In this document: one piece after another, positions 9,001 through 12,000 of the stretch
How positions within the stretch are numbered: the stretch's first letter is position 1
Layout: each line of letters starts with the position of its first letter
DNA from: a virus
Length of the DNA stretch: 12,797 nucleotides
UHGV virus genome: UHGV-1675436
Strand: one strand, 5' to 3'
Program-made: the position numbers

Positions 9001-12000
9001 GGCCAACTCACCCTGCTGTTCTTTGGTTAAAGAGTCCCAATACGCTTTCATACAATATGTACCTCCGGTATACATATTACATGATTGAGATGAACCTTCA
9101 AGATACTTGTACCTTATCGGTACAAAGGTTTTAATTTCTTTATGAAAACAGTCCATGACATCCGGCGGTCTAACGCCAGAAAACTGAGAGATGGTGTTGG
9201 CGGGAATTCTTCCTTTGCCACCATGATTGATCGCGAGCCAACCCAGACCAGCAGGTTTATGGGAGATGGTGCAACTAAAAATATCGGTGACAGCATGGCA
9301 CGGCACATCGAAAAATGTTTCGACCTGCCTGTCGGATGGCTTGATCAAGAACACCAGACAACAAACATCACAAAAAAACCTGATGTTTCAATTACTAACA
9401 AACAAATAACGTTAGTCCCTGTCATATCATGGGTACAGGCCGGAGCATGGAAAGAAGTTGGCTATTCTGAGGTTGATTTGAGCACAGCAGAAACTTATCC
9501 CTGCCCTGTACCCTGTGGCGAAATGACTTATATCTTGCGGGTGATTGGTGATTCAATGATTGATGAGTACCGCCCGGGAGACATGATTTTTGTTGATCCT
9601 GAAGTCCCTGCCTGCCACGGTGACGACGTTATTGCATTGATGCACGATTCAGGCGAAACCACCTTCAAGCGGTTGATAGAAGATGGAACACAGCGTTATC
9701 TCAAAGCATTAAACCCAAACTGGCCTGAGCCTTACATTAAGATTAACGGTAATTGCTCTATAATTGGTACAGTGATTTTCTCGGGAAAACCAAGAAGATA
9801 CACAATAAAGGCCTAATCAATATTTATGAACCTGCTTCGGCAGGTTTTTTTATGCTTGACAATGTACCCATGAGATACATAATGTATCTAAAAGAAACAT
9901 AACACAGGCAAGATTAAAACAAAATTTGGTTGTAACACGGCGTATGGCACATGCGTCGTTAGCGGTCTGGGGACGTTAAAGGGGACAATCCACTCCTTGC
10001 TCGGGCAAACAAACCAGGTAGCCGGAATGTGCAAGTCAATGATAATGCTGATAAGACGCCTAACCAGCGTGGCGATCCGGTTTGACGCCTGGGAAGAGAC
10101 CAGGGTGCAACGATGAGGGTATTTATGGAGCCGCGACAAAGTGTGGTGCCGTAACTGGCTAAGTGCTCTCAGCGTTGTGGTAATCCGCGAAATGGCGCGG
10201 CGGTAAGTATGGCGGGGTTACTCTTTCCCCGTTGAGGACACCGGATTGTCAGGTTGACCATACGCCTGAGTGACAACCCCACCACAACAGCCACTGCTTT
10301 GGCGGTACCAGTTTGTACACTTGCTTCCGGCTGGTACCGCTCTTTTTACAAAACAGAGAAGAGCATCACCGGACGACGGGCTCATAACCCAATCCATCCG
10401 GGCGGCTGCCACCGCAGGTGTTCTTCTCTGTTTTGTGGAGAAACCAACCGACCTTGCAGGGTCGATATGATTAGGAGCAGCAAAATGGCTAGCGAACGCA
10501 GTACTGATGTGCAGGCATTTATCGGGGAGCTGGACGGCGGCGTATTTGAAACAAAAATCGGCGCAGTTCTCAGTGAAGTCGCTTCCGGTGTGATGAACAC
10601 GAAAACCAAAGGTAAGATCTCACTCAACCTGGAAATCGAACCATTTGATGAGAACCGTGTGAAAATCAAACACAAACTCTCATATGTTCGCCCGACTAAC
10701 CGCGGGAAAATTTCCGAAGAAGACACCACCGAAACGCCGATGTATGTCAATCGCGGTGGTCGCCTGACTATTCTGCAGGAAGACCAGGGACAATTACTGA
10801 CTCTTGCCGGTGAACCTGACGGAAAACTCCGCGCAGCAGGTCATTAATATCGTTCTTAATTAACCGATTATTTATCTCATCACTGAATATCTTTATATAG
10901 TGAGGACTTATTATGTCTCAGAACTTAGACGCAACCGCAATTAATCAAATCCATGCCCTTATTTCTGCTCAGGGTGTTAATGAAATTATCAGTAAGATTG
11001 GTGCCGATGCTGTGGCATTGCCTGAGAATTTCCGCATTCATGATCTGGAAAAATTAAATTTAAATCGCTTCCGTTTCCGTGGTGCGCTTTCCACTGCCAG
11101 CATCGATGACTTTACTCGTTATTCTAAAGATCTTGCAGATGAAGGCACCCGCTGCTTTATCGATGCTGATAATATGCGTGCCGTCAGTGTTCTTAACCTG
11201 GGTACTATTGATGAACCAGGTCACGCAGATAACACCGCCACTCTCAAACTGAAAAAGACAGCTCCGTTCTCTGCTCTGTTGTCTGTTAATGGCGAGCGTA
11301 ACTCCCAGAAGTCACTGGCAGAATGGATTGAAGACTGGGCCGACTACCTTGTGGGCTTTGATGCTAATGGTGACGCCATTCAGGCAACCAAAGCGGCTGC
11401 GGCGATCCGTAAAATCACAATTGAAGCGAACCAGACCGCTGATTTTGAAGATAATGACTTCAGCGGCAAACGCTCCCTGATGGAGTCTGTCGAAGCGAAG
11501 ACCAAAGACATTATGCCAGTGGCATTTGAATTTAAATGCGTTCCGTTTGAAGGTCTGAAAGAACGTCCGTTTAAATTACGCCTCAGCATTATCACTGGCG
11601 ATCGTCCTGTACTGGTTCTGCGCATTATTCAGCTGGAGGCGGTGCAGGAAGAAATGGCTAACGAATTTCGTGATCTGCTTGTTGAGAAATTCAAGGACAG
11701 CAAAGTAGAAACCTTTATTGGTACTTTCACCGCCTGATTTCATTACTGCAAATGCCCCTGCGGGGGCATTTATGGAAACGTAATTTACTCAATAATCGCC
11801 GGATGGTGAGGGATTCTTTTTACCAGAATTCAGCGCGGTGCAGCGCATATACGTGGAGAACAAAATGTCATTTATCAAAACTTTTTCTGGGAAGCATTTT
11901 TATTATGACAGGATAAATAAAGACGACATCGATATTAACGATATCGCGGTTTCCCTTTCAAATATCTGTCGCTTTGCCGGTCATCTTTCGCACTTCTACA

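Follow-up and report, generated by a model that had tools for sequence, protein, structure and literature searches.

A mosaic of five separately conserved RNA modules in the untranslated early-left leader of the virus genome UHGV-1675436

The virus genome UHGV-1675436, analysed here as one stretch of 12,797 nucleotides (nt) that we call the window, carries an interval of about 590 nt (9856-10484) between a pL-type promoter and the first early-left gene. We take this interval for the untranslated leader of an early-left operon under repressor control, in a lambdoid prophage of the SfV/mEp460/cdtI/Stx2c type, and it is a chain of five separately conserved RNA modules, all on the plus strand, which we name A1 (9938-10105), A2 (10108-10177), B (10174-10288), T (10298-10347) and C (10348-10436). 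Compensatory covariation backs every one of them. The original prediction, made from the sequence alone, had pictured a leader free of open reading frames (ORFs) and rich in plus-strand structure, possibly a single RNA of about 590 nt. Its first part was borne out: the plus strand of the interval folds at -229.3 kcal/mol (z = -4.72, 0/100 shuffles as good) and the minus strand more weakly (z = -2.90), no credible ORF lies between the promoter and 10485, with stops in all frames, and the indels between homologues have lengths not divisible by three and fall in hairpin loops, which keeps base pairing and not codons. The single RNA did not hold up, as the five modules have separate phylogenetic distributions.

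Different parts of the leader have different relatives. In BLAST searches against phage genomes, positions 9924-10180 matched P1/P7, the phiV10-type Uetakeviruses, SPN1S and a Klebsiella phage, positions 10174-10296 matched PPompW-type prophages and P1, and positions 10300-10484 matched SfV, SfII and ST64B; local alignments agree with this pattern. A1 occurs in P1, the Uetakeviruses and mEp390, B in P1 and the Qin prophage of Escherichia coli K-12, and T together with C in SfV, e14 and ST64B. The modules are retained in intact, inducible phages (P1, mEp460, cdtI and Stx2c phages). Absence of covariation had been named in the original prediction as a ground for giving it up; the alignments of homologues show covariation. 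Retrieval by exact motifs biases estimates of conservation, and the E-values of the covariance models are rough.

The modules also recur in a fixed order. A1-A2-X-T is found elsewhere, with tRNA-Arg, B or another closed domain as X. A phiV10-type phage has A1, A2, tRNA-Arg, a DicF-family hairpin (GGCGGTGATGG..CTATCACCGCC CTTTTTACAG, with CTTTTT after CTATCACCGCC), then another terminator and a single ORF. Across 122 distinct A1 loci, A2 is followed by tRNA-Arg in 21, B in 20, a closed domain of type D in 21, another sequence of the form GTGGTGAA.. in 9 and other sequence in 21. Because the content of the slot after the stalk varies, we describe the architecture as A1-A2-X-T with an exchangeable X. 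The window adds C to this order, and its whole array lies between pL and the early genes.

A1 is an RNA under selection at the level of base pairs. It is a double-pseudoknot RNA of 168 nt with four nested helices, namely P1 (9938-9943/9953-9958), P2, which encloses a variable hairpin, P3, and P4 (10088-10092/10100-10104, loop GAAGAGA). Two pseudoknots join the loop GCACAU to AUGUGC (PK1) and the loop AACC to GGUU (PK2), and an invariant segment, GGUAGCCGGAAUGUGCAAG, occupies 10017-10035. We examined this structure in an alignment of 46 sequences (46 groups, <93% identity). The proposed partners pair in 96.6% of cells, compared to 27-46% with slid partners, 13 pairs carry compensatory changes (99 cells), and 0/500 shuffles reach the observed pairing or covariation. 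PK2 switches from CACC with GGUG to AACC with GGUU in two unrelated backgrounds. PK1 is invariant across the alignment, so covariation offers no proof of it. A long-range pairing of the A1 5' end offered by RNAalifold was dropped in favour of the local P1, whose columns 7 and 19 covary perfectly (G-C in 20 sequences, A-U in 26). The A1 covariance model finds one copy in the window (136.9 bits) and no match in HK022, HK639 or SfV, and no Rfam 15 family matches A1.

A1 is widespread and unannotated. An exact search of IMG/VR with the invariant 19-mer (GGTAGCCGGAATGTGCAAG) returned at least 120 contigs, and A1 is present in 1831 of 5426 complete E. coli genomes, with 554 places on plasmids, annotated in none. 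An independent anchor in the A1 5' hairpin retrieved 23 loci from species-representative genomes; 22 match the model, and the 19-mer is unchanged in 21 of these 22. Nearly all come from Enterobacteriaceae (Kosakonia, Phytobacter, Citrobacter, Klebsiella, Kluyvera, Enterobacter and Erwinia). Two anchor matches lie outside this family, one in Acidovorax sp. Leaf191 (L149), which has no covariance-model match, and one in a 1.7-kb contig of a Bacillota metagenome-assembled genome (MAG) with a full-score A1 (L150); both are probably contamination or chance and not the true host range.

A1 is linked to tRNA genes, an association that does not appear in the original prediction. A tRNA adjoins A1 or A2 on the same strand at a fixed distance in 45/128 loci. 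In 28 of the 128, tRNA-Arg(UCU) lies downstream, typically starting about 164 nt after the 19-mer and in a few cases about 220-230 nt after it; in 17, a CAU tRNA (Ile2, P1 trnI) ends 15 nt before the first hairpin. These fixed distances suggest that RNase P or 3'-end processing would act exactly at the module borders. The window retains a vestige of 7-8 nt of a tRNA-Arg 5' end (GTGGTAAT) after A2. Promoter-like sites precede A1 by about 45-50 nt in the window and in mEp390 and by about 5-40 nt in other loci, and at several loci a terminator directly follows it.

B is a closed pseudoknotted domain of 115 nt and, judged by its sequence, the orthologue of the Qin ydfC-dicF RNA and of the 5' end of the P1 ban operon. 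It comprises an 8-bp closing stem (GUUGUGGU/ACCACAAC; GUUGUGGC/GCUGCAAC in Qin), the hairpins CCGCG/CGCGG and GGGG/CCCC, a long-range helix UAUGG/CCAUA and a crossing 9-bp helix (GGAUUGUCA/UGACAACCC). Pairing holds in 96.3% of cells against 34-59% when slid (22 sequences), and ten pairs show double changes compared to 2.5 ± 1.2 in shuffles (0/500). The covariance model scores 144.8 bits in the window (a single copy in 12.8 kb), 146.2 bits in Qin and 90.8 bits in P1, and finds nothing in HK022, HK639, SfV, ST64B or e14. Positions 10165-10348 of the window align along their length with the untranslated ydfC-dicF region of K-12 Qin, and the opening ~120 nt of the P1 ban operon align with B, adjoining the annotated 'dicF-like region'. 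These homologies are new relative to the original prediction, which had seen a rut-like, C-rich stretch at 10273-10296; its letters are present, but they are the 3' strands of two conserved B helices. A search by eye, the only one made, found no convincing alternative helix for a riboswitch-type anti-terminator pairing between B and T.

The Qin dicBF operon is one of the closest known counterparts. Like the window operon, it is a repressor-controlled early-left operon of a lambdoid prophage, and it shares the end of an A2-type stalk, B, and then a hairpin with a U-tract at the dicF position. It differs in that the protein genes ydfABC precede the RNA region and that A1 and C are absent. DicF lies in the long untranslated region of this operon, its 5' end is made by RNase E, and its 3' end arises by Rho-independent termination (53 nt) or by RNase III cutting of the read-through RNA (72 nt) (PMC5069750). 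The P1 ban operon (Pban - 'dicF-like region' - trnA trnT ... trnI - ban) is C1-repressed, again resembling the repressor-controlled operon of the window. It starts with B followed by a strong terminator hairpin (GCCCATCTTCGGGTGGGCGTTTTTT), has A1 right after trnI and before ban, and is, like the window operon, a mixed tRNA, structured-RNA and protein operon. The order is B...A1 instead of A1-A2-B, and no A2, T or C stands beside A1. The P1 annotation names the 'dicF-like region' only, leaving A1 and B unannotated.

A2 and C represent one type of stalk, a helix of 15-20 bp with variable cargo. A2 (10108-10177, CAACGAUGAGGGUA.. with ..UGCUCUCAGCGUUG) is a long irregular helix around a variable insert, with the consensus CAAC-N3-AGAGCAU [insert] GUGCUCU-N3-GUUG and inserts of 1-90 nt. 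In 25 distinct variants the duplex energy averages -22.8 kcal/mol with a locus's own partner, compared to -16.4 kcal/mol with the strands of other loci. Qin has an A2-type stalk upstream of B without A1. The 3' strand of A2 overlaps the 5' strand of B by 4 nt; GUUG(UGGU) at 10174-10181 pairs either upstream, in A2 (CAACG/CGUUG), or downstream, in the closing stem of B, and the two are mutually exclusive there. The shared 4 nt could be a folding switch or simply a junction. A2 and C resemble the RNase III stalks of rRNA operons (the stems flanking 16S and 23S), lambda sib and the T7 early sites in that their helices are formed by the flanks of a replaceable cargo and it is the helix sequence that is conserved. 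A flanking helix of about 20 bp, as in such stalks, is found in C (16 bp + 4 bp) and in A2. As putative stalks, A2 and C differ in carrying bulges and G-U pairs, which could matter to RNase III.

C is a second stalk-type helix whose insert carries the anticodon arm of initiator tRNA. Its stem joins ACAAAACAGAGAAGAG (10348-10363) and CACC (10367-10370) to GGTG (10417-10420) and TTCTTCTCTGTTTTGT (10421-10436), with a wobble G10363-U10421 and an interior of 49 nt. The original prediction had given this stem exactly (10348-10367/10417-10436), including G-U pairs that are possible on the plus strand only, and had offered RNase III processing as one reading. The hairpin is under selection for RNA structure: among 18 variants, C pairs in 90.1% of cells, compared to 39-51% when slid, with 11 pairs double-changed (0/500), and its length is that of an RNase III substrate. 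The 16-bp stem alone is 95.5% paired with five compensatory pairs, and its G-U pairs exist on the plus strand only. The tRNA likeness of the insert had gone unremarked. It folds as a D-arm-less, tRNA-like three-way junction with an arm at 10372-10398, which holds GACGGGCUCAUAACCCAAUC, and a small hairpin GCGG/CCGC at 10402-10415. The core CGGGCUCAUAACCC (10377-10390, CAU at 10383-10385) corresponds to the anticodon stem-loop of initiator tRNAfMet; CGGGCTCATAACCC is identical in 14/14 nt to E. coli K-12 metZ, with three G-C pairs and the loop CUCAUAA, so the core is an initiator-type anticodon arm. Nearly all variants retain GGG/CCC and CAU, and the outer arm covaries; the e14 copy is without the CAU triplet. 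C is conserved in SfV, SfII, e14 (under the K-12 'ymfH' CDS, coding sequence), ST64B and many prophages, and at one locus (L063) an A2-type stalk has the C core as its insert.

C is not recognised as a tRNA cloverleaf, and the window copy has a long helix in place of an acceptor stem. ARAGORN called no tRNA in the window, e14, ST64B or L063, and likewise passed over the copy in Klebsiella phage GZ7. There the C core comes directly after tRNA-Asn and tRNA-Arg, downstream of Q. This GZ7 copy (L258, 1206-1275), unannotated in its record, is a D-arm-less, tRNA-like RNA of about 70 nt with an acceptor-like GGCCUG/CAGGCC, ACCA (discriminator A plus CCA), a long anticodon-type arm with the loop CUCAUAA and a small T-like hairpin. 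The thrS operator is a familiar mimic of the tRNAThr anticodon arm, and C similarly reproduces a tRNA anticodon stem-loop, here of the initiator type. As a putative mimic, it differs in that the window core is closed by a long helix and not by an acceptor stem with CCA. The T4 tRNA cluster includes extra stable RNAs (species 1/2); in a comparable way, the modules described here occupy tRNA slots and adjoin tRNAs.

T combines a DicF-family hairpin with a predicted intrinsic terminator. Its stem pairs GGCGGUACCAG (10301-10311) with CUGGUACCGC (10331-10340) around a 19-nt loop and is followed by a U-tract at 10343-10347; a simple hairpin scan missed it since the loop exceeds 8 nt. The segment UUUGGCGGUACCAGUUU is identical in 16/17 nt to nt 13-29 of DicF, whose sequence we checked against the K-12 record, and when T is aligned on the Qin dicF position, UUUGGCGGUAyCAGUUU and CCGCyCUUUUU are common to both. 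A GC-rich stem of 10-12 bp followed by UCUUUUU gives T the sequence of an intrinsic terminator, and the whole 82-nt fold reaches -24.1 kcal/mol. Thirteen diverged variants all form a GC-rich stem of 8-13 bp, which covaries, and retain U5-6, with the loop free to vary. A hairpin with a T-run occurs within 200 nt after B in 91/92 distinct loci, compared to 54/300 random windows. T also has the position of DicF, in the untranslated part of an early operon, at the dicF site and with a predicted Rho-independent end. T may be placed in the DicF family on sequence and position. The seed regions of DicF, which acts by Hfq-dependent riboregulation, are not found in it.

The boxA-like element of the original prediction (CGCTCTTTTTA, 10338-10348) is present, but it is the 3' strand and U-tract of the T hairpin. 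Its letters vary in homologues (ACCGCCCTTTTT, GCCGACCTTTTT, CCGCAATTTTTT), in which stem complementarity and the T-run are kept. Lambda N/nut has the same position, as the first thing transcribed from pL, and CGCUCUUU matches the start of boxA. Unlike lambda, the window has no N gene, its boxA letters are not conserved, and no boxB-type hairpin follows, so that no N/nut site with conserved boxA, boxB hairpin and N gene is found here. PHROG and Pfam searches gave no N-like gene at the N position, as the original prediction had supposed.

Our favoured reading, to which we give a little better than even odds, is that the leader is a noncoding-RNA cassette that is transcribed from pL, partly terminated at T and processed like DicF, with read-through feeding the early genes. 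Upon derepression, RNA polymerase would start near 9890, and part of the transcripts would stop at T (~10347), giving a noncoding primary transcript of about 455 nt. Host RNases would cut both this transcript and the read-through RNA into stable module-sized pieces, with RNase E acting in A/U-rich linkers, RNase III in the long helices of A2 and C, and RNase P at loci whose X is a tRNA. Among the products would be a DicF-like riboregulator with a loop (seed) unlike that of DicF. Read-through transcripts would express the yfdP-type early genes, and cleavage in stalk C would detach the leader and leave an mRNA 5' end about 45 nt before the Shine-Dalgarno sequence (SD). The proposed termination and processing are based on the sequence and layout homology with the Qin dicBF transcript, for which DicF biogenesis is documented. 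What the sequences show is the modular anatomy, the selection at RNA level on all five modules, the homologies and the recurring order; the start site, the partial termination, the individual cuts and the functions of all products are inferred.

Several observations weigh against this reading. The Rfam DicF model (RF00039) gave no match to T at the gathering threshold or at E<=10 in 9780-10560. T is without the 5' 12 nt of DicF (UUUCUGGUGACG), its loop (UUUGUACACUUGCUUCCGG) differs from that of DicF (UUUUACUCCGUGA), and the ftsZ-complementary ACUCC is missing. The target regions of DicF are its 5' end (xylR, pykA) and the ftsZ-complementary loop (PMC5069750). T may be only a terminator. In P1, A1 sits after trnI, directly before ban, without A2, X or T, and the cassette is not universal, as an A2-type end is missing from 30/122 A1 loci. 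The homologues of B and C are often close relatives, and their covariation counts rest on few lineages. CRISPR interference (CRISPRi) data show that P1 can form plaques in the laboratory without its ban operon (PMC10695390), which would fit an accessory role. Finally, A1 and B are conserved more than any other part, and the favoured model leaves both without an assigned function.

In the strongest alternative, A1 and/or B would work in cis, in the manner of HK022 put, as RNAs for processive antitermination (or against Rho). While still nascent, the pseudoknotted RNA would bind polymerase and let it pass T, later terminators and Rho in an untranslated leader of about 600 nt; we consider this a live possibility, though less likely than not. 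Read-through at put acts in cis and depends on the beta' zinc-binding domain. HK022 and HK639 are, like the window, lambdoid phages without N that transcribe a multi-helix RNA from pL upstream of terminators. The missing N gene speaks for a put-like role, as do the intrinsic terminator 20-80 nt after B in 91/92 loci and the position of B as the opening element of the P1 ban operon, which C1 controls, ahead of the terminator GCCCATCTTCGGGTGGGCGTTTTTT. A1 starts shortly after promoter-like sites, is directly followed by a terminator in several loci, and heads untranslated RNA operons (A1-A2-tRNA) that would need protection from Rho. Its junction and loop nucleotides are highly invariant, as for a protein-binding surface. 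The P1 hairpin of A1 (CGGCGUAU..AUGCGUCG) resembles put stem I (CGGCGCGU..AUGCGUCG), the two sharing ACGGCG...AUGCGUCG, which we take as a lead only.

Against a put-like role, the covariance models of A1 and B gave no match at E<=10 in the put regions of HK022 or HK639 (annotated putL). BLAST with putL returned 21 records, none from this phage group, and a 14-nt match in HK022 was rejected as chance, lying inside nun. The put RNA measures about 70 nt, folds into two stems and begins at +1 of pL, and another copy follows pR (PMC9378689). A1 (168 nt) and B (115 nt) are both pseudoknotted and A1 starts near +48; neither has the size and two stem-loops of put or its copies after both promoters, for each is present once in the window and absent from the pR operon, including the cro/cII side. 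A1 lies deep inside the P1 operon, after B; the downstream unit of Uetakeviruses is only a tRNA and one ORF; Qin and SfV carry T without A1; and two different elements in one operon would be redundant. The likeness of A1 and B to put would at most be a functional analogy.

A decayed remnant is improbable. On that account the leader would be a functionless spacer left by a phage tRNA/small-RNA cluster, its structures mere relics. The vestige of tRNA-Arg after A2 (GTGGTAAT), the C core that looks like a degenerate tRNA and is rejected by ARAGORN, deletion derivatives in SfV and the e14 copy without CAU are all in keeping with decay. Compensatory changes nevertheless maintain the helices of A1, A2, B, T and C across diverged lineages, the 19-nt segment of A1 is constant in nearly all independently anchored loci (21/22), and the modules persist in the intact, inducible P1, mEp460, cdtI and Stx2c phages.

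Two further readings are very unlikely. The first takes the whole ~590-nt interval as one large structured RNA or one long fold of a 5' untranslated region (UTR). GOLLD and ROOL RNAs are phage-borne and tRNA-associated, as this leader is; the interval folds far better than shuffles, and its minimum free energy (MFE) model pairs distant parts. However, other genomes carry each module on its own, no supported helix reaches beyond its module, a predicted intrinsic terminator lies inside the interval, and no Rfam large-RNA family matches it. The second takes A1 as a self-cleaving ribozyme that matures the adjoining tRNA, in the manner of the HDV-like 'theta' ribozymes that adjoin tRNAs in gut phages. 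The nested double-pseudoknot core, the invariant junction nucleotides and the fixed distances to tRNA ends in 45/128 loci would suit such an activity, yet no Rfam ribozyme family matches A1 even at E<=10, the other 83 of the 128 copies have no adjacent tRNA, RNase P already explains a cut at the tRNA 5' end, and no cleavage-site signature was identified in A1.

A hidden protein gene (N-like with an unusual start, or a frameshifted pseudogene), whose conservation across the region the original prediction had named as its own refutation, has next to no chance, as the small 'hypothetical proteins' annotated here (e.g., in Ayreon, and ymfH in K-12 e14) and two ORFs with PHROG matches are set against the absence of a Pfam match for any ORF of the interval, stops in all frames, indels that spare pairing and not codons, and the position of those two ORFs, the only PHROG matches in the interval, from families of unknown function, over the most structured RNA in T and C and partly antisense to yfdP. 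SfV orf33, at the same position, was considered as a hidden N and rejected; it is acidic with an unknown PHROG and so not N-like. The two window ORFs, 10218-10412 (minus strand) and 10270-10470 (plus strand), match PHROGs 3651 and 33599 and overlie the DicF-like hairpin and the C stalk. YmfH of K-12 e14 (L155, 2363-2674) overlies the same two elements, both of which evolve by compensatory changes. On sequence grounds, YmfH and the ORFs of PHROG 3651/33599 are likely mis-annotated RNA regions.

Neither a DicF-type element nor the notion that an early-operon UTR is processed is new. Rfam contains none of the A1, B and C motifs, and it has neither the A1-A2-X-T layout nor the tRNAfMet-like core. 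We found none of them described in searchable text and no paper with the conserved A1 or B strings; an earlier account of the homology flanking dicF may exist. King 2011 reportedly dealt with put-like RNAs, and Faubladier & Bouche 1994 is said to have described dicF-related prophage sequences. The Pas small RNAs (sRNAs; preprint) were considered and set aside as these RNAs, being late-region sRNAs.

We offer a bolder proposal tentatively, as a real possibility well short of an expectation: A1, B and the positional analogue D would be unrecognised phage RNA classes, each active in its own right. Either they may form a new polymerase-modifying family of antiterminator/anti-Rho RNAs that takes the place of N across a very large group of temperate phages of enterobacteria and protects untranslated tRNA/sRNA operons, or the anticodon-arm mimic of C may be a decoy or sensor for a reader of tRNAfMet (a VapC-type nuclease, IF3 with the 30S P site, or MetRS). 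If either were true, the DicF locus of K-12 would contain an overlooked functional RNA, B, beside a 35-year-old sRNA. Modification of RNA polymerase by A1 or B would make a second RNA antiterminator family after put, and trans-acting A1 or B would be abundant early phage RNAs without an assigned target.

Lambdoid early-left leaders are usually read as 'N plus nut'. Prophages of the Stx2c, cdtI, SfV, mEp460 and e14 type have a different solution, exchangeable structured RNAs ending in a DicF-type terminator, and this group plus Qin-type loci match part of the sequence in 4784/5426 complete E. coli genomes. The analysis defines no fewer than three RNA motifs that lacked annotation, namely A1, B and the stalk of C together with its core resembling tRNAfMet, each with covariation and a testable structure. 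Through the A1-A2-X-T architecture, phage tRNA cassettes are joined to the P1 ban operon and to the poorly understood K-12 region that yields the DicF precursor, and annotated 'hypothetical proteins', including K-12 ymfH, are flagged as probable RNA.

The leader follows an immunity region that is reversed in the window. The cro gene (8851-9051) and a cII-like gene (8256-8819), both on the minus strand, lie on one side, and an ORF for a LexA/CI-type repressor (9142-9816, plus strand; PHROG, transcriptional repressor/CI-like) on the other. The cI transcript would end at an intrinsic terminator (9828-9851, plus strand; hairpin 9828-9847, GAACCTGC-TTCG-GCAGGTTT, then TTTTTAT), whose hairpin is also kept in SfV, with a terminator annotation there. 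Directly after it, as the original prediction had recognised, stands a pL-type sigma-70 promoter, TTGACA-16-CATAAT (9856-9883, plus strand; 11/12 consensus match), a site annotated as a promoter in phage Ayreon. Read directly, its spacer contains ATGTA..TACAT (9862-9880), a palindrome of operator type similar to the TGTAC..GTACA sites found between cI and cro. Transcription would start near 9890, as judged from the promoter sequence. The following 5' linker (9890-9937, plus strand) is A-rich, weakly structured (unpaired in the MFE fold) and poorly conserved among homologues. The first ~48 nt of the transcript would contain many A-R-N triplets (AAA AGA AAC AUA ACA ...), a motif type reported for Hfq distal-face binding.

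At the other end, the first credible gene begins at ATG 10485 and encodes a YfdP-type protein (phrog_204). The stretch before it (10447-10484, plus strand) holds a hairpin CGACC-UUGCAG-GGUCG (10447-10466), the SD AGGAG (10473-10477) and a spacer. The hairpin ends 6 nt 5' of the SD and is kept in SfV and e14; it might influence translation initiation of the first gene. A hairpin scan also picked it up on the opposite strand.

Further segments distinguish SfV and ST64B from the window. A segment GGACGCCCACGAAGUAGCCGCC..GGCAUA stands directly after pL in SfV (L002, 2605-2650) and ST64B (L259, 955-1000) and in the upstream flank of A1 at another locus (L090); the window has none. The closed domain D (GUGGUGAAUGCGGCUCAGCGCACGCGG ... 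CACCACAAC; GUGGUGAAUGCGG...CACCACAAC) fills the slot that B occupies in the window in SfV (L002, 3255-3400) and ST64B (L259, 1296-1420), and e14 likewise carries D in that slot. In Qin, D comes after dicF instead (L154, 2458-2600). For mimicry of, or antisense pairing with, rRNA, the longest shared word was 13 nt, in a variable insert and within the shuffle range, and we rejected this reading.

The Rfam search proposed with the original prediction was empty for the leader and informative elsewhere. Rfam 15 at the gathering threshold gave no plus-strand match in 9856-10484, and cmscan of 9780-10560 at E<=10 returned no leader family, the lone plus-strand match being a weak rsmX over the cI terminator; a tRNA/tmRNA search of the whole window found none. 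The Rfam matches of the window lie outside the leader, namely C4 antisense RNA (82.8 bits, 7711-7798) and isrK RNA (63.7 bits, 7823-7899), both on the minus strand. They sit inside a minus-strand ORF of 278 aa (7423-8259) that relatives annotate as an 'immunity region' protein and whose PHROG matches start only at about residue 103. The 5' part of this ORF is probably RNA, a module of the pR operon resembling P1 immI c4/ant or Gifsy isrK-anrP.

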